From: Escherichia phage BP32
Reading direction: 5' to 3' (one strand)
Sequence record: OR906198.1
Length of the DNA stretch: 64,000 bases
Part shown: one piece after another, positions 1,073 through 8,591 of the stretch
Numbering within the stretch: position 1 is the stretch's first letter
How the letters are laid out: the number at the start of each line of letters is the position of its first letter
The notes under the pieces: model-generated
What the model was told of the DNA's origin: nothing
The model's database searches: none
The model's input: only the letters and a program-made list of their open reading frames with translations
Program-made: the position numbers and the translations under genes

Positions 1073-2079
1073 AAACAGTAATGAAAAGCTATTTTGGTAG
1101 TCATCTTTATGGAACTTCTACTCCAGAATCTGATGTAGATTTCAAAGAAATCTTTGTTCCTCCTGCTCGCGACATTCTTATCGGAAATGTTAAAGAGCAT
1201 ATGAGTAAAAACACTAACAACACATCATCTAAAAACACTAAAGATGATATTGACCATGAACTATACAGTCTTAAGTATTTCTTTAAATTAGCAGCAGATG
1301 GTGAAACTGTAGCATTGGATATGCTCCATACTCCACCTGAACTGGTAGTTAAATCTGATTTGCCTGATGTATGGAAGTTTATTCAAGACAATCGTTCTCG
1401 TTTTTATACGACTAACATGAAATCCTATTTAGGATATGTCCGCAAGCAAGCTTCTAAATACGGTGTCAAGGGTTCTCGTTTGGCTGCATTGCGTGATGTA
1501 TTGAAAGTAGTTAATCAAATCCCTGATCAGTGGGTTGATTATCAAGAAGACGGTTCCATTAAGCAACGTCGTACTAAAGTTGAAGATATTAAGCATCGTC
1601 TTCCAGAGAACGAGTTCTGTGAATGGGTGTTCCATAATCACGAGAAAACAGGCCCGCAAACGTTCTATACTGTGTTGGGTCGTAAATATCAGACAACGCT
1701 TTCTCTTATTGAGCTTAAGCAGTCACTGAACAAATTAGATGCTGAATACGGCGAACGTGCTCGTAAGGCTGAAGCGAATGAGGGCATTGACTGGAAAGCT
1801 CTTAGTCATGCTTGCCGTGGTGGACTCCAACTATTGGAAATTTACAAAACTGGTGATTTGGTTTATCCACTCCAAGATGCTCCATTTATTCTCGACGTGA
1901 AGTTGGGTAAACATCCATTTAAAACTGTTCAAGAGTTTTTGGAAGATGTGGTCGATCAAGTAGAAGCAGCATCCATTGAAGCTTCTAAGAACGGTATGCA
2001 GCAAAAAGTAGACATGAGTTTCTGGGATGACTTCCTTGAGAGGGTTTATCTTGAAAACCACCGAAGTTATTATAAATGA
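1069..2079 (+). CDS. nucleotidyltransferase-fold protein (Pol-beta superfamily-like motif), 336 aa
   Basis: N-terminal YFGSHLYGTSTPESDVDF matches the hG[GS]x(9-13)Dh[DE]h NTase signature; ATGA overlap with upstream gene; terminator follows. Confidence 0.6.
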   Translation: MKTVMKSYFGSHLYGTSTPESDVDFKEIFVPPARDILIGNVKEHMSKNTNNTSSKNTKDDIDHELYSLKYFFKLAADGETVALDMLHTPPELVVKSDLPDVWKFIQDNRSRFYTTNMKSYLGYVRKQASKYGVKGSRLAALRDVLKVVNQIPDQWVDYQEDGSIKQRRTKVEDIKHRLPENEFCEWVFHNHEKTGPQTFYTVLGRKYQTTLSLIELKQSLNKLDAEYGERARKAEANEGIDWKALSHACRGGLQLLEIYKTGDLVYPLQDAPFILDVKLGKHPFKTVQEFLEDVVDQVEAASIEASKNGMQQKVDMSFWDDFLERVYLENHRSYYK

Positions 2080-2082
2080 TAA

Positions 2083-2106
2083 GGGAGCCTTCGGGCTCCC
2101 TTTTTT
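2083..2106 (+). terminator. rho-independent terminator
   Basis: GGGAGCC-TTCG-GGCTCCC hairpin followed by TTTTTT, directly after stop at 2079. Confidence 0.8.
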
Positions 2107-2130
2107 ATTTCAAAAATTTTTCATAAAACT

Positions 2131-2160
2131 GTTTACAAGCATAAAGCTTTATGGTACTAT
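2131..2160 (+). promoter_or_regulatory. T4-type early (sigma70) promoter
   Basis: -35 GTTTAC (2131-2136), 18-bp spacer, -10 TACTAT with upstream TGG; A/T-rich upstream region. Confidence 0.65.
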
Positions 2161-2194
2161 ACAACTATCAACTGATACGGATTTGGAGAATAAA

Positions 2195-3163
2195 ATGAAA
2201 ACTGTAACTATCAATAAAGGTATCTACTTCGGTAAAGAAATCTCTGGAACTTTTGAGCTCTTAGGCGAATGGTTCCCAGATAATGCTCCGGTAGATGCAC
2301 AAGGAGATGGTAAAGTTTTTGTTGAAATTGACGGTAAACGTCGCGGTGTTTGGGTTTACAAATCAGATATTTCATATGATGGTGTAAAAGTTGAAGAAGT
2401 TAAAGAATCATATGAAGATATGAAAACCCGCATTAATAAAAGATTTAATGTTATGGGAATGATGACGAATGGTATTATTAATGGAAATATTCGTTCATTA
2501 ATTATCTCTGGCGCAGCAGGTATTGGTAAAACGTATTCTTTAGATAAAGCTTTAAATAAAGCAAATGATATTGGATACATTGAATATAAAAGCATTAATG
2601 GTAAAATCTCTGGTATTGGTCTTTATGAGCAGCTTTGGAATAATCGTGAAGAGAACTCTGTCCTTTTGATTGATGATGTGGATGTTTTCTCTGATATGGA
2701 CATTCTTAATCTTCTGAAAGCTGCTCTGGACACTGGAGAGACCCGTAAAGTCTGCTGGAGCACTGCATCTTCTTACTTAGAAGAAAAAGGCATTGACCGT
2801 GAGTTTGAATTTAAAGGAACGATTGTTTTTATCACAAACGTTGATATTGACCGCGAATTAGACCGTGGTACTAAACTTGCCCCACACTTACAAGCATTAG
2901 TGTCCCGCTCAGTTTATTTAGATTTGGGTGTTCACACTAATGAAGAAATTATGGTCAGGGTTGAAGATGTTATTCTTTCAACCGACATGATGCAAAAGCG
3001 CGGTCTTTCTGATGAAGAAACTTATAAAGCATTATCATGGATGAAAGTTAATGTTAATCGTTTACGCAATGTTTCACTGCGTACTGCTCTTTATCTTGCT
3101 GACTTTATTATGACCGACAAAAACGGTTGGGAAGAAATTGCTGAGGTTACTCTTCTGAAATAA
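2195..3163 (+). CDS. P-loop NTPase (AAA-like ATPase), 322 aa
   Basis: Walker A GAAGIGKT and Walker B-like VLLIDDVD; ATG after GGAGAATAAA RBS; track ORF 2027 start is an upstream extension through the promoter. Confidence 0.7.
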   Translation: MKTVTINKGIYFGKEISGTFELLGEWFPDNAPVDAQGDGKVFVEIDGKRRGVWVYKSDISYDGVKVEEVKESYEDMKTRINKRFNVMGMMTNGIINGNIRSLIISGAAGIGKTYSLDKALNKANDIGYIEYKSINGKISGIGLYEQLWNNREENSVLLIDDVDVFSDMDILNLLKAALDTGETRKVCWSTASSYLEEKGIDREFEFKGTIVFITNVDIDRELDRGTKLAPHLQALVSRSVYLDLGVHTNEEIMVRVEDVILSTDMMQKRGLSDEETYKALSWMKVNVNRLRNVSLRTALYLADFIMTDKNGWEEIAEVTLLK

Positions 3164-3264
3164 TTCATAAGAGGACTTCTATGACAAAAAGGCAGTTCAG
3201 AAATAGATTATATGGACTGCCATTAAAAAGATGACTAGAATTAAACTGGTGAATGGAGGTAGTG

Positions 3265-3569: not shown

Positions 3570-3599
3570 GTTTACAAGACTGTTCCTCTGTGGTACTAT
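3570..3599 (+). promoter_or_regulatory. T4-type early promoter (cassette copy 1)
   Basis: -35 GTTTAC, -10 TACTAT; 57-58 bp cassette nearly identical to 56752-56808. Confidence 0.65.
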
Positions 3600-3627
3600 A
3601 CAACTATCAACTACGGAGGAACAGAAA

Positions 3628-4155
3628 ATGAACGCTAAAGATATTTTCAACTTGGTAAATTACAACGATGGTAAATTTAAATCTGAAGCACAAAGCAAGT
3701 TCTTTAACGACATCTCAATCGGAGGTGAAATCACTGTTGATGGAGGACAAATTTACAAATCCCGTTGGAATTGGATCGTTATTATTGATGAGATCGGTAT
3801 TGTAGAAATTTACAAGAATACGAATAAAAATAGTACATTACACTGGTCTCGTGATACTAACGAACAGTACAAAAAGGATAAAGCATCTAAATTATCTCGT
3901 GTAACTCAAGAAGATATTGAGTTCATCAAGAAAGATATTTTAATGTATGATAACTTAATTGCTGAAGAGCAAGCTGTTATTGATAAATTTGACGAGATTA
4001 AAGCTTCTCGTGAAATTCCTGATTTTATGAAAGAATCAGTAAATGAACGATACACTCTCATTTCAGAGCGTATTGAAACTTACAAAAAGCAAAGAGCTGA
4101 ACGCCAAAATACTCTTCGGAAGTTTGAAGAACGGTTAAAGACGGTACTCGCATAA
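3628..4155 (+). CDS. hypothetical protein (175 aa)
   Basis: ATG after ACGGAGGAACAGAAA leader; track ORF 3568 start is a TTG extension through the promoter. Confidence 0.65.
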   Translation: MNAKDIFNLVNYNDGKFKSEAQSKFFNDISIGGEITVDGGQIYKSRWNWIVIIDEIGIVEIYKNTNKNSTLHWSRDTNEQYKKDKASKLSRVTQEDIEFIKKDILMYDNLIAEEQAVIDKFDEIKASREIPDFMKESVNERYTLISERIETYKKQRAERQNTLRKFEERLKTVLA

Positions 4156-4181
4156 CCGCTTTATACCAAGGATGGTATAAT
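4153..4181 (+). promoter_or_regulatory. candidate extended -10 promoter
   Basis: TGGTATAAT with weak -35; upstream of the 4211 gene. Confidence 0.4.
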
Positions 4182-4625: not shown

Positions 4626-5513
4626 ATGTCAGTCGTAATTAATAATGTCAATGCAGTAATTAAATCTTTAGTTAATAAAAAATCAAATGAATGGACTGTA
4701 CTTCAACACGACGAGTCAGATAAATTTTTTCATAAATTTAACCCAGTACTAAATTTAAATGTTATTGATAAAGATGTTCACGCCGAAATTTTAGATAAGT
4801 TTAAAGTTGATATTGGATTTGGATTAGAAAAACATTTACAACGAACAAACGGGTCTGGAATGCTTTTATCTAATCGCATCATGAAAGCCCTTAATAAAAT
4901 TGGAGCGTTGTCTCGCATTAACGCGAGTGAAATTCTTCGCAATTATAATAAAGGATATGACCTTTATGGTCGACTAATGCCGAAATTATCATTTGACCAA
5001 ATGATCGCAGATTTGTGGGAAAATCAACGACGATTATTAGCATTAGGCGCTCGATTAGCTAAAGGTCTAGATAAACAAATGATTTTTAAAACTAATAATA
5101 CAGAAGACCTTAAATGCTTTAAATTTAGTACTCGTGGAGATGATTATTACGTCAGAGCTCGCTCTACAGATTATGTTAATATGGGGCATCATCTCTGTTT
5201 AGCTTTTGAAATTTTAAAAGAAGCTGGAACATTAGAATATGTGTCTGGTGCTAAATGTCCGATTGGTTCAAGTTGTATTTTAATTTATCGCCCGGATGAA
5301 TCCAGTTCAACTAAATTGCCTACAAAACCTGTACCAGTTCATAGTAATGAAAAACATTCTGAACAAATTGATTATTTTAATAAGCAAATTGAAGAGCTGA
5401 ATATTTCTATTCAACAATATGACGATGAAATCTTTAGACTATCCGGATTGAGTAGTAAAGCTAAATCTGAACGTGAAAAATTAATTAAAATTGTTGATTT
5501 ACTTAAATCTTAA
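4626..5513 (+). CDS. hypothetical protein with C-terminal coiled coil; member 1 of a tandem paralogue array
   Basis: ATG after GAGTGAGGAAAAT RBS; C-terminal heptad-like segment; internal motif LLALGARLAKG resembles paralogues. Confidence 0.65.
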   Translation: MSVVINNVNAVIKSLVNKKSNEWTVLQHDESDKFFHKFNPVLNLNVIDKDVHAEILDKFKVDIGFGLEKHLQRTNGSGMLLSNRIMKALNKIGALSRINASEILRNYNKGYDLYGRLMPKLSFDQMIADLWENQRRLLALGARLAKGLDKQMIFKTNNTEDLKCFKFSTRGDDYYVRARSTDYVNMGHHLCLAFEILKEAGTLEYVSGAKCPIGSSCILIYRPDESSSTKLPTKPVPVHSNEKHSEQIDYFNKQIEELNISIQQYDDEIFRLSGLSSKAKSEREKLIKIVDLLKS

Positions 5514-5521
5514 GGAACACC

Positions 5522-6550
5522 ATGAAAACTCGTTCTCAAATTGAAGATATGGTTCGTAATGCCAGTTATACTCGTGATGTTATGACATTTTTGTGTGAAA
5601 ATAATTTAGACCTTAATAAAGTTAATTGTTCCATTCACGCCTTTAAACATCTGAATAGCAGTGAATGGGTGCGTAATTTTAGCGAAGCAGGGTATATTAC
5701 ACAAATGACGGCTCGTGAGCAGCTCACTGATTTCTGTAAAACTATCGATTATAAAAATCCTCTATTTGTTCAAGGCGTTGGTCAAAGTAAGGTCGATTTA
5801 TCATCTGGATTTTTTAATCCAAATCATTATCGTATTGAATGGAGATTTATTGCTCTGTTCCGCAAGCAACTAAAACAAATTTTATCAACTGCGAGTCGAT
5901 TAAAAGGTTCTGATATTAACTTAAAGAATCTGAAATTTGATGGTTATACTCTTCAGATGGAAGTAAGACCATTAAAAGAAAATAATAGAACTGCACGAAT
6001 TAGCTTTAAACCTAATACAAAAAATTCTCTTTCAATTTGTGAATGCCTTAAATCGCAGTTGACAGAAGCATTTAAGTATATGGATGTTGTTGCTGCTGTC
6101 CAGTCTAAGATTTCACAGCGTTTCGAACTATTTAAATTAGACACAACAACATATAAACTTGATATGATCGTTTCATTTAAATACGATTTTTTGAGAAAGG
6201 ACGAAGTCACACAAGAGAAAAAGCAGGAAGTGCAAGATAACTTAAATTTAAATTTATCCAATTACTCATCAAACGATCCTAAATTTTGGATGTATAGTTC
6301 AGGTAATAAAGATGCATGGAAATTCAATAAAGTGAATTTTCTTCCTATTGAAAATCCGAGTCTTAAACCTGTTGAAAAATGGCATGCAGATGCGATTGAA
6401 AAGTCTATCAAGGCAGTAGATGATGAACTCGTTAAAGCAACTAATGAAGTGTTAGAAGCTGAAAAGATGCTAGAAAAAGCTCAAGAAAAAGTCAAAAATC
6501 TCACGAAGCAACGTTCTAAACTGAACAATGCACTAAATGCACTGAACTAG
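5522..6550 (+). CDS. hypothetical protein with C-terminal coiled coil; paralogue array member 2 (342 aa)
   Basis: Track ORF; N-terminus MKTR..; motif FRKQLKQILSTASRL shared with next gene. Confidence 0.7.
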   Translation: MKTRSQIEDMVRNASYTRDVMTFLCENNLDLNKVNCSIHAFKHLNSSEWVRNFSEAGYITQMTAREQLTDFCKTIDYKNPLFVQGVGQSKVDLSSGFFNPNHYRIEWRFIALFRKQLKQILSTASRLKGSDINLKNLKFDGYTLQMEVRPLKENNRTARISFKPNTKNSLSICECLKSQLTEAFKYMDVVAAVQSKISQRFELFKLDTTTYKLDMIVSFKYDFLRKDEVTQEKKQEVQDNLNLNLSNYSSNDPKFWMYSSGNKDAWKFNKVNFLPIENPSLKPVEKWHADAIEKSIKAVDDELVKATNEVLEAEKMLEKAQEKVKNLTKQRSKLNNALNALN

Positions 6551-6579
6551 TTTACTTTACCACAGGGATGTGGTATAAT
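6550..6579 (+). promoter_or_regulatory. T4-type early promoter
   Basis: -35 GTTTAC, spacer TTTACCACAGGGATGTGG, -10 TATAAT. Confidence 0.65.
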
Positions 6580-6607
6580 GTTCTTACTTTCTACTGAGGA
6601 GATTAAT

Positions 6608-7609
6608 ATGACTCGTAACGAATATATCAAATCATTCAATAGCGTTATTGATGATAAAGCTATACCGATGTTTGGCCAAAATAGCGTTCTTTCTATTATC
6701 AATCAATGGCTCAATAGTGTTGATGCAGGTATTGTTTCTTCTACTAAATTTATTCATGAAATTCGTAAAATTTCTAGTCGTGTAGATAAAGATGTTATCA
6801 AGAAAACCTTTAAAGAGTCTCGTCTTCTTTCATATTTGGTTAATCGGGATATTCTTGGTAATTTTGGGAAAGAAATTAAACGAACCAAAGATGTAGTAGG
6901 ATATAATTGGTTCGGTGATGTTAATACTTATCATCTTAATACTAAAGAAGACCCTGAGAATATTTTTACTCGTCGTTGGGTTAGTGAATTTAGGAGTTTT
7001 ACGAAGCAAATTCTAAAATCAGCTTCTAAATTATGTTATGGCGATTATCGTCAAATTCATCCCTTAGCTGATGATATGATTATAGCAGAAGAATATGAGC
7101 TTGATAAAAACAAAGTAGCTATTTTTATTAATTACAGATTTTTTACACCAGAAACTAACCAAAGGAATATTAATAAATTTTTCTCAATTGCTAGCACTAT
7201 AACTCGTCAATTAGAGACTGCACTACTTTGTATGGAAACGGTAGAAAATATTCATACTTATCCTTTTAAGAATATGTGCGGCTGGGAAGGATATAAAATT
7301 GTAGTTAGTCTTCGTGAAGTGAAATGTGCTTATTCACCGACTGATAAAGAAATTTACCAACAAAAATGCGAAGAAATTGTGAATACTCCTAAAGAAGAAA
7401 CTACCCTTGAGGAACTAATGGAATGTCTTGATGATTCGCCTGAACCGGTAGAAATTCGTCCAGAAGTTATTGCATTAGAAAAAGCTTATAAAGAAGTTTT
7501 AGAAATTTCTAATAAAGCGCAGAAAGAATATGAGAAGGCTAAAAGGATTTGGGAAGAATCTGTTAATCGCTTGGATCGTCTTGAACAAGCTTTACAGTTA
7601 ATTAAGTAA
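6608..7609 (+). CDS. hypothetical protein with C-terminal coiled coil; paralogue array member 3 (333 aa)
   Basis: ATG after GGAGATTAAT; motif FRSFTKQILKSASKL; own early promoter upstream. Confidence 0.7.
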   Translation: MTRNEYIKSFNSVIDDKAIPMFGQNSVLSIINQWLNSVDAGIVSSTKFIHEIRKISSRVDKDVIKKTFKESRLLSYLVNRDILGNFGKEIKRTKDVVGYNWFGDVNTYHLNTKEDPENIFTRRWVSEFRSFTKQILKSASKLCYGDYRQIHPLADDMIIAEEYELDKNKVAIFINYRFFTPETNQRNINKFFSIASTITRQLETALLCMETVENIHTYPFKNMCGWEGYKIVVSLREVKCAYSPTDKEIYQQKCEEIVNTPKEETTLEELMECLDDSPEPVEIRPEVIALEKAYKEVLEISNKAQKEYEKAKRIWEESVNRLDRLEQALQLIK

Positions 7610-7639
7610 TTTAAAGCCAAGGATGGCTCGGAGTATAAA
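7610..7639 (+). promoter_or_regulatory. candidate promoter (sigma70-like or late-like TATAAAT)
   Basis: TTTAAA ... 18 bp ... TATAAA upstream of the 7662 gene. Confidence 0.35.
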
Positions 7640-7661
7640 TCATTAACTAAGTGAGAAGAAC

Positions 7662-8591
7662 ATGAAAACTCGTAAACATTATATTGATTATTTTGACAGT
7701 CTTATTACTAAACATCGTAATTATCAGATCGGGCACAGAGCAGTAATCAATAATATTCTTCGTGATTTCCTTCAATATGTTGGCCAGGAAAATCATATCT
7801 GTAAAGATACTCAAAACGCTTATTCTCATTCGTTGGGCAATTTGCTTCAATGGTTTAAACGTTCTCGTCTGTTATCTTCTACTGTAGCTAGTGATAACAT
7901 TAAAAACTTTATGAAGCCGAGCTTCATTAAATCTGCGACATCTATAACCGATTTGGTTGAATTTACTATTGTTAACGATGTTAAAAAGACCCATTTGGCT
8001 GATTGGTTATCTACCATTCCTGAAACTAAATTTGCTGATAAATTCGCTTGTCAATTCAATGACCAAGTGAATATGCTTTTTAAGCATGCTCGTAAACTAT
8101 TTACCGCGGGTGATGACCGTACAAATACAGTTCATGTTAAGGACTGGGTTATTGCTGATGAAGTAACACACAAGCCAGGTGGTTCATCAGTATTAATTAA
8201 TATCCAGGTTCCTTATTATTACTCACGTAATCTCGGCACCATGACAGCTAGAGAAATTAATAAGCATAACAAAACTATTCGTTCGTTGTCTTATAAACTC
8301 TGCACGATGGTGGAGATGATGGACGTAGTGGAAATGTATGACGAAACCGAAGATAATGGTTCAATGTTATACAGTTCACGCATTCTAATTAAACTGAAGA
8401 ACCCTAATACGTATAAGCCAGTTGTAAAAGAACCTAAAATAGAAAAGGTTGATAACTTGAGCGAAGAACGTGAATACCTCAAATCTCGACTAGTTGAAGT
8501 TGAAGCTCAGATTGCCGAACACACTAAATTGTTAAAAGCTCTTAATGCAAAAGCAAATGGTTTACGTAATGCTATTGAGGTATTGAAATGA
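7662..8591 (+). CDS. hypothetical protein with C-terminal coiled coil; paralogue array member 4 (309 aa)
   Basis: Track ORF; N-terminus MKTRK..; C-terminal coiled coil. Confidence 0.7.
   Translation: MKTRKHYIDYFDSLITKHRNYQIGHRAVINNILRDFLQYVGQENHICKDTQNAYSHSLGNLLQWFKRSRLLSSTVASDNIKNFMKPSFIKSATSITDLVEFTIVNDVKKTHLADWLSTIPETKFADKFACQFNDQVNMLFKHARKLFTAGDDRTNTVHVKDWVIADEVTHKPGGSSVLINIQVPYYYSRNLGTMTAREINKHNKTIRSLSYKLCTMVEMMDVVEMYDETEDNGSMLYSSRILIKLKNPNTYKPVVKEPKIEKVDNLSEEREYLKSRLVEVEAQIAEHTKLLKALNAKANGLRNAIEVLK

Follow-up and report, generated by a model that had tools for sequence, protein, structure and literature searches.

The genome of Escherichia phage BP32 (sequence record OR906198.1) carries a tandem array of four genes, nrdC.6, nrdC.5, nrdC.4 and nrdC.3, which are paralogues of common architecture, vary in copy number between phages, evolve faster than the core genes next to them and are placed among early promoters. 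We analyzed the array within a window of 64,000 nucleotides, the whole stretch of DNA under study, and all positions are counted from its first letter. In phage T4, nrdC.5 has been shown to overcome the Escherichia coli defence protein Dsr1 (Srikant, Guegler & Laub, eLife 2022; PMC9391042). Since nrdC.6, nrdC.4 and nrdC.3 are full-length paralogues of this anti-Dsr1 gene, they represent concrete counter-defence candidates. The explanation we favor, and consider reasonably probable, is that of an expanded early-gene family whose products would be oligomeric through a C-terminal helix and whose heads would each counter a host immune protein.

Paralogy and body plan of the array

The window is a Tequatrovirus (T4-like coliphage) genome: the 5.2-kb stretch around the array matched 743 phage records, nearly all of them from this genus, at nucleotide identities of up to about 95.7%. 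An earlier sequence-only reading, made without database searches, had listed four consecutive genes, and all four are present with the coordinates, strand and lengths given in Table 1, where they are numbered as members 1 to 4. Their names were taken from the annotated relatives W143, SA20RB and RB32. The array sits between nrdC.7 and nrdC.2, followed further downstream by the glutaredoxin gene nrdC, pin and gene 49. The same synteny (between nrdC.7/.8 and nrdC.2, upstream of nrdC) was found in W143, SA20RB, RB32, Bp7, JS09, SP18, RZ, CJ20, Marfa, IME523 and PM2. Each protein fits the model of its own family along its entire length. Member 2 matched its Pfam family with an expectation value (E) of 8e-122, and the four PHROG matches ranged from E=1e-115 to 1e-166. 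All Pfam and PHROG entries that cover the four proteins are families of unknown function. Member 2 is 92.2% identical in amino acid sequence to T4 NrdC.5 over residues 1–333 and syntenic with it. Members 1, 3 and 4 are 12–22% identical to NrdC.5, which is likewise the range of pairwise identities among the four proteins.

In GenBank, homologues of nrdC.3 to nrdC.6 are often labelled 'thioredoxin', and the ESCO10 record reads 'inhibitor of host transcription'; neither label has domain support. A thioredoxin or glutaredoxin identity was rejected, as no such family appeared in Pfam or NCBIfam scans and AlphaFold2 predicted, for members 1 and 2, a helical part, a beta-beta-alpha-beta-beta core and a long helix. 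The thioredoxin label is a propagation of the name 'nrdC.x'.

Table 1. Genes, shared motifs, C-terminal helices and early promoter of the array (window positions).
Feature	Position	Strand	Description
Member 1, NrdC.6 homologue, nrdC.6	4626..5513	+	295 aa (amino acids); PHROG 2257; close relatives carry Pfam PF26899 Phage_T4_Y05B
Member 2, NrdC.5 homologue, nrdC.5	5522..6550	+	342 aa; Pfam PF23882 DUF7235; PHROG 2351
Member 3, NrdC.4 homologue, nrdC.4	6608..7609	+	333 aa from ATG 6608; PHROG 1435; close relatives carry Pfam PF26897 Phage_T4_Y04OP
Member 4, NrdC.3 homologue, nrdC.3	7662..8591	+	309 aa; PHROG 1435 (family of member 3)
Motif A, member 1	4878..4955	+	IMKALNKIGALSRINASEILRNYNKG
Motif A, member 2	5666-5743	+	
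Motif A, member 3	6797-6874	+	
Motif A, member 4	7842-7919	+	
Motif B, member 2	5858..5914	+	FRKQLKQILSTASRLKGSD
Motif B, member 1	5013-5072	+	
Motif B, member 3	6989-7045	+	
Motif B, member 4	8055-8117	+	
Motif C, member 2	6056..6094	+	QLTEAFKYMDVVA; core helix of beta-beta-alpha-beta-beta
Motif C, other members	5190-5228, 7208-7246, 8295-8333	+	
C-terminal heptad helix, member 2	6371..6547	+	residues 284-342
C-terminal heptad helix, member 1	5349-5510	+	
C-terminal heptad helix, member 3	~7457-7606	+	
C-terminal heptad helix, member 4	~8430-8588	+	
T4-type early promoter	6550..6579	+	GTTTAC-N14-GTGG-TATAAT, 0 mismatches; serves nrdC.4 and the genes after it; same site annotated in SA20RB

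Direct comparison joined members 3 and 4 by BLASTP (E=6e-9 over 226 residues) and by hhalign (98% probability, E about 1e-13). For members 2 and 3, hhalign gave a collinear alignment spanning about 230 columns (E=5e-5), and member 2 matched a merged profile of members 3 and 4 at 91% probability and E=1e-6. Chance is far from explaining either this last match or the pairing of members 3 and 4. Member 1 gave marginal values against each single family (hhalign E=0.012–0.07; 0.01–0.1 with BLASTP and hhalign taken together), and we therefore used merged profiles, a profile search of a whole protein library and iterative searches. Against the merged profile of members 2, 3 and 4 it reached E=1.9e-4 with a score of 37.6 in hhalign. 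Reversed-profile controls scored 11–21, the exception being member 3 against reversed profiles that contained its own family (23–34). Word-indexed homologue searches stayed within the family borders, and most of what they retrieved were close relatives.

All pairwise alignments were collinear and mutually consistent, and the same blocks came into register when the four families were aligned with plain MAFFT. Across the families, motif A reads IKKTFKESRLLSYLVNRDILGNFGK / LLQWFKRSRLLSSTVASDNIKNFMK / WVRNFSEAGYITQMTAREQLTDFCK / IMKALNKIGALSRINASEILRNYNK, motif B FRSFTKQILKSASKLCYGD / FNDQVNMLFKHARKLFTAGDD / FRKQLKQILSTASRLKGSD / LWENQRRLLALGARLAKGLD and motif C QLETALLCMETVE / KLCTMVEMMDVVE / QLTEAFKYMDVVA / HLCLAFEILKEAG. 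A P-x-P-V element precedes the last helix, and the proteins have a common C-terminus, ..L..A(L/I).(L/V)(L/I)K, of which member 2 carries a variant ending in ..ALNALN. The motifs quoted in the sequence-only reading (FRKQLKQILSTASRL, FRSFTKQILKSASKL, LLALGARLAKG and LFKHARKL) share their alignment columns across all four families, namely those of motif B, and the MKTR start it had noticed in members 2 and 4 occurs as an N-terminal M(K)TR in members 2, 3 and 4.

A profile built from the combined alignment and run against 1.84 billion representative proteins (cut-off E<=1e-3) retrieved 28 hits only, including full-length remote members. Several sequences bridge the families in searches with hidden Markov models (HMMs). 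P0231, P0235, P0242 and P0246 scored 25–50 bits against the NrdC.6 HMM (positions about 104–281) and 23–41 bits against the N-terminal and C-terminal parts of the NrdC.5 HMM, P0236 matched the NrdC.5 HMM with 49 bits and the NrdC.4 HMM with about 20 bits (positions 59–249), and P0239 matched all four. As the metagenomic contigs with P0231 (1.9 kb) and P0236 (3.8 kb) give little context, GenBank phages were used instead; a locus scan of IMG/VR with the family alignment returned 14 loci from the same few genera.

An iterative search seeded with member 2 converged on all four families. After trimming the last 75 residues from every sequence, seeds from member 2 or member 3 still recovered all four families, a member 4 seed recovered families 2, 3 and 4 together with the bridging sequences, and a member 1 seed recovered the same bridging sequences. 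Decoys or unrelated open reading frames (ORFs) recruited by the iterative searches numbered zero. Both the globular body and the coiled coil thus carry the similarity, and the profile comparison that had been proposed as a check gave significant similarity beyond the latter.

Judged by sequence comparison, the four genes are diverged full-length paralogues and not merely genes with similar coiled coils; the link of member 1 is weak by direct comparison and is made solid by intermediates and iterative searches. They are very old copies of one gene. Duplication followed by divergence, as the sequence-only reading had it, is borne out by the profile alignments and by superfamily HMM copy numbers of 4, 3 or 1 per genome. 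Its picture of variable domains on a conserved oligomerisation module did not hold: the globular parts are homologous too, and conservation in motifs A and B comes close to that of the helix. Mean BLOSUM62 values between paralogues were 0.38 for motif A and 0.50 for motif B vs 0.53 for the C-terminal helix, which together with the unity of the trimmed searches indicates that this picture overstates the contrast.

One metagenomic protein, P0224, is a natural chimera in which NrdC.5 residues 146–274 are joined to NrdC.3 residues 129–309. The two parts correspond to window positions 5957–6343 and 8046–8588 and meet at KVN/QVN, which looks like a deletion of the end of nrdC.5, the whole of nrdC.4 and the start of nrdC.3.

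AlphaFold2 models were obtained for two of the four proteins, member 1 from an alignment of the NrdC.6 family only (predicted local distance difference test score, pLDDT, 79.8; predicted template modelling score, pTM, 0.66) and member 2 from a superfamily alignment (pLDDT 76.7, pTM 0.60). The model of member 1 shows a globular part (residues 1–221), a disordered or low-confidence segment (227–241) and a broken helix of 30 and 18 residues (242–271 and 277–294). In member 2 the globular part (1–225) and the disordered or low-confidence segment (230–281) are followed by a single helix of 58 residues (284–341). Both models have the same order of secondary-structure elements: helices, a two-helix unit with motif B, beta-beta-alpha-beta-beta, a linker and the long C-terminal helix. 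When compared through the sequence alignment, the secondary structures of members 1 and 2 agreed at 73% of positions, while circularly shifted controls had a mean of 41% and a maximum of 57%. The body plan common to the paralogues is a helical part with motifs A and B, a beta-beta-alpha-beta-beta core, a disordered linker and a heptad helix.

The C-termini of all four proteins are helical, charged and nearly free of proline and glycine. In a crude heptad count the fraction of hydrophobic residues at positions a and d was 0.70, 0.80, 0.55 and 0.85 for members 1 to 4. The coiled coils of 30–40 residues claimed earlier are thus found as heptad-like helices, which in member 2 is longer (58 residues), and the count agrees with a coiled coil in members 1, 2 and 4 (70–85%) and less so in member 3 (only 55%). 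A long helix with hydrophobic a and d positions is predicted overall, through which the proteins would form oligomers. A search of the PDB with the superfamily profile returned only coiled coils of SMC, GCN4-zipper and IF1 proteins, confined to the C-terminal region and with E of at least 0.0025.

Foldseek searches of the BFVD database with the member 1 model found uncharacterised proteins of T4-like phages with 304–335 amino acids (E=2e-7 to 1e-3) in IME523, Pectobacterium phage PM2, the Acinetobacter phages fHyAci03, Acj9 and Acj61, Merlin and fHe-Yen9-01. The member 2 model matched proteins of Erwinia phage Cronus, Klebsiella phage Mineola and fHyAci03, and the Acinetobacter phage protein A0A345AUV5 was matched by both models. 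Matches of member 2 to tail-completion, tail-terminator and Dit-like proteins in BFVD (E=0.01–0.1) were not significant and were discarded. Our searches found no known fold or solved structure matching the family.

NCBIfam and PADLOC scans gave sub-threshold matches only (XerC/XerD N-terminal domain, PgrA and BrxC coiled-coil regions). In the first of these, NrdC.3 residues 30–86 (window 7749–7919, overlapping motif A) resembled the XerC/XerD N-terminal domain with E=0.0015. We rejected a tyrosine-recombinase N-terminal (SAM-like) domain in NrdC.3, since the match reached 17.8 bits vs a cut-off of 279 and did not recur in Pfam scans of 47 members. The NrdC.6 protein of Shigella phage Sf25 (P0064, 378 amino acids) carries an internal tandem duplication of 83 residues (about 176–258), which spans the beta-beta-alpha-beta-beta core and the linker.

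Copy number, phylogeny and rate of evolution

The presence and absence of the genes across T4-like genomes was determined with the superfamily HMM, and copy numbers of 1, 3 or 4 were found. Exactly four members are present in the window, three per genome in Mosigvirus (JS09), Dhakavirus (Bp7) and Gaprivervirus (SP18, RZ, CJ20), and one in Marfavirus, Kanagawavirus (IME523) and Mosugukvirus (PM2). In all of these genomes, whether with four, three or one copy, the genes are located just upstream of nrdC.2. Searches by tblastn with the bridging proteins extended the family to many phages of Klebsiella, Enterobacter, Kosakonia and Edwardsiella.

Neighbour-joining analysis separated clades of NrdC.6 (bootstrap 100), NrdC.5 (75) and NrdC.4+NrdC.3 (93–96). 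Genes 1, 2 and 3 of the three-gene arrays fall into the NrdC.6, NrdC.5 and NrdC.4+NrdC.3 clades, respectively, and among the groups sampled both NrdC.4 and NrdC.3 are present in Tequatrovirus only. This distribution, with one copy in distant phages, three in related genera and four here, is that of an apparent lineage-specific expansion of one accessory early-gene family. NrdC.3 of Tequatrovirus occurs in two allele classes (at least 90% and about 59% identity). The window allele is 77% identical to that of Mosigvirus JS09 vs 60% to the RB32 type (bootstrap 99%), suggesting exchange between genera.

Fast evolution of the array had been anticipated and was indeed observed. Between genera the four proteins are 23–51% identical (apart from the 77% of NrdC.3 to Mosigvirus), compared with 73–90% for NrdC, gp49 and NrdC.10. 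Within Tequatrovirus, ratios of non-synonymous to synonymous substitution rates (dN/dS, Nei-Gojobori) were 0.14–0.24 for the four genes vs 0.00–0.06 for nrdC, gp49, nrdC.1, nrdC.8 and nrdC.9; the Lon inhibitor gene pin gave 0.21. The non-synonymous rate of the four genes is 3–10 times that of their neighbours. They are under purifying selection that is relaxed relative to the core neighbours, and are clearly less constrained.

Promoters and gene starts

Two members of the array had been credited with early promoters of their own. Only nrdC.4 has a consensus promoter (Table 1); the spacer in front of nrdC.3 holds TATAAA together with a CCAAGGATGG element, and neither a consensus -35 box nor a MotA box was found there. 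The decamer CCAAGGATGG occurs at 4165–4174, within a middle-promoter-like site (GCTT-N-TATAAT, 4158–4181) before nrdC.7, and again at 7617–7626 in the nrdC.3 spacer, where a 7-nt insertion separates it from TATAAA, so this copy may be a decayed promoter. From this arrangement, the promoter at 6550 would drive nrdC.4 and nrdC.3, and transcription of nrdC.6 and nrdC.5 would start at promoters further upstream.

Downstream of the nrdC.4 promoter come a short leader, a GAGGAG ribosome-binding site and the start codon ATG 6608. GenBank relatives have NrdC.4 as a protein of 343 amino acids, starting at the ATG equivalent to 6578. The start at 6608 chosen in the sequence-only reading is the better one and likely the true one, since ATG 6578 lies inside the -10 box, GAGGAG precedes 6608 and the PHROG alignment of NrdC.4 begins at residue 11.

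Similar promoter-leader cassettes precede nrdC.10 (2131–2160) and nrdC.8 (3570–3599), the near-identical sequence GTTTAC..GGTACTATACAACTATCAAC extending over 2131–2200 and 3570–3640. Given the cassette upstream of nrdC.10, the mechanically called ORF 2027–3163 probably starts near 2195. A seg-like homing-endonuclease gene lies between nrdC.10 and nrdC.9 in W143 and RB32 and is missing from the window, where 3163–3253 was compared with 1464–2183 of L001 and 805–1524 of L020.

Counter-defence and its alternatives

Dsr1 is a defence protein of the SIR2-domain NADase type with tetratricopeptide repeats (SIR2-TPR, sirtuin defence). According to the T4 study (PMC9391042), an evolved T4 clone that lacks some accessory genes did not plate on ECOR17, deletion of dsr1 from the host restored plating, and dsr1 on a plasmid shielded MG1655 from the clone. 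Supplied alone from a plasmid, nrdC.5 rescued the T4 deletion clone on Dsr1-bearing E. coli. The paper treats nrdC.5 as a single uncharacterised gene and gives no mechanism, and its text as consulted mentions no paralogues. In our literature search we found no paper with a mechanism for NrdC.5 or with any function for NrdC.6, NrdC.4 or NrdC.3. A 2026 preprint (PMC12803255) reports that the TPR sensor of Dsr1 is homologous to that of Avs7 and of other effector fusions, and that it recognises phage major capsid proteins.

Member 2 is the only one of the four that qualifies as an orthologue of anti-Dsr1 T4 NrdC.5: it shares about 92% amino-acid identity and DUF7235 with the T4 protein and likewise sits between nrdC.6 and nrdC.4, whereas members 1, 3 and 4 are paralogues with 12–22% identity and without a reported phenotype. 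The anti-defence role expected from the sequence-only reading is therefore backed for member 2, through experiments on the T4 orthologue (PMC9391042), and for members 1, 3 and 4 it is what their paralogy would suggest.

In the explanation we favor, the C-terminal heptad helix would make each paralogue an oligomer, and the diverged head, flexibly tethered by the disordered linker, would bind a host immune protein. The immune protein neutralised would differ from paralogue to paralogue, be it a separate protein or another variant of the same one: Dsr1 for NrdC.5, and other systems or variants for NrdC.6, NrdC.4 and NrdC.3. Several points weigh against this. An experimental phenotype is available for one of the four members only and its mechanism is not given, and the NrdC.5 of the window is about 92% identical to that of T4, not identical. 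We infer, rather than observe, the oligomeric state of the paralogues and their direct binding. The alignment used for the member 2 model included relatives of member 1, and the two models are thus not fully independent. Gene-wide dN/dS is below 1, so positive selection is not demonstrated. The conserved extreme C-terminus of all paralogues could also reflect a shared partner rather than independent action.

The latter point bears on an alternative that we regard as unlikely, in which one hetero-oligomeric complex is built from all four proteins through their C-terminal helices and serves a single joint early function. The very similar extreme C-terminus and the heptad helix of all four would suit such a complex, as would adjacent, co-directional genes of which nrdC.4 and nrdC.3 share one early transcription unit. 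However, copy number differs between phages from 1 to 4, NrdC.3 alleles swap between genera independently of the other members, and plasmid-borne nrdC.5 alone sufficed on Dsr1 cells, although the text consulted does not specify which other nrdC genes the deletion covers (PMC9391042).

Improbable to a similar degree is a general role in host takeover or related to nucleic acids, such as binding of DNA, RNA or housekeeping factors, with an indirect effect on Dsr1, for instance by removal of its trigger. The genes are early and one member is found in almost all T4-like phages examined, and the weak XerC/XerD N-terminal match of NrdC.3 points in the same direction, but that match is far under its cut-off and was not repeated, loss of the genes from evolved T4 clones shows them to be dispensable in the laboratory, and they diverge much faster than core genes. 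A resemblance due to coiled-coil or low-complexity composition and chance motifs in unrelated genes, to which the marginal single-family values of member 1 and the three separate database families (PF26899, PF23882 and PF26897; PHROGs 2257, 2351 and 1435) might point, is effectively refuted by coiled-coil-trimmed searches that unite all four families without a decoy, by bridging sequences that score 40–50 bits to two family HMMs in regions outside the coiled coil, and by consistent alignments and secondary-structure order.

The favored explanation of an oligomeric family with diverged heads can be extended to a modular set of 'anti-sensors', which we put forward as a speculative and rather doubtful possibility. 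Each head would occlude a different receptor that senses phage proteins, and the helices would give homo- or hetero-oligomers, that is a multivalent and possibly multi-specific inhibitor. NrdC.6, NrdC.4 and NrdC.3 would each disarm a distinct E. coli defence system, and the expansion from one to three to four copies would be the record of an arms race.

A functional analogue is DSAD1 from a Bacillus SPbeta phage, a phage protein that, according to the abstracts of PMC10973363, PMC11087589 and PMC11263360, represses or inhibits DSR2, a sirtuin defence with a SIR2-domain NADase. DSAD1 targets DSR2 and not Dsr1, and is likened to NrdC.5 by description only. The BFVD searches with members 1 and 2, which were not aimed at DSAD1 and in which many entries are unnamed, gave no match labelled as such. 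The alt family consists of ADP-ribosyltransferases, distinct in both family and function from the proteins considered here. In T4, alt, alt.-1 and alt.-2 are likewise adjacent duplicated accessory genes in plastic regions (PMC1524935), but NrdC.3 to NrdC.6 are far more diverged.

The genes themselves are long-known T4 ORFs; new are the unification of three database families and three further counter-defence candidates. PF26897 and PHROG 1435 already merge NrdC.4 with NrdC.3, while Pfam and PHROG keep three families, whose union covers T4-like phages of Escherichia, Klebsiella, Enterobacter, Edwardsiella and Pectobacterium. The fold matches widen the superfamily to phages of Acinetobacter, Erwinia, Citrobacter and Yersinia. 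Tandem, fast-evolving accessory duplicates are familiar in phage genomes, and we regard the result as a useful lead rather than a surprise. The plan of head, linker and coiled coil can be used for the design of mutants. T4 is the best-studied lytic phage, and in its nrdC.x block, labelled 'hypothetical' or wrongly 'thioredoxin', three orphan genes become directly testable candidates for counter-defence.

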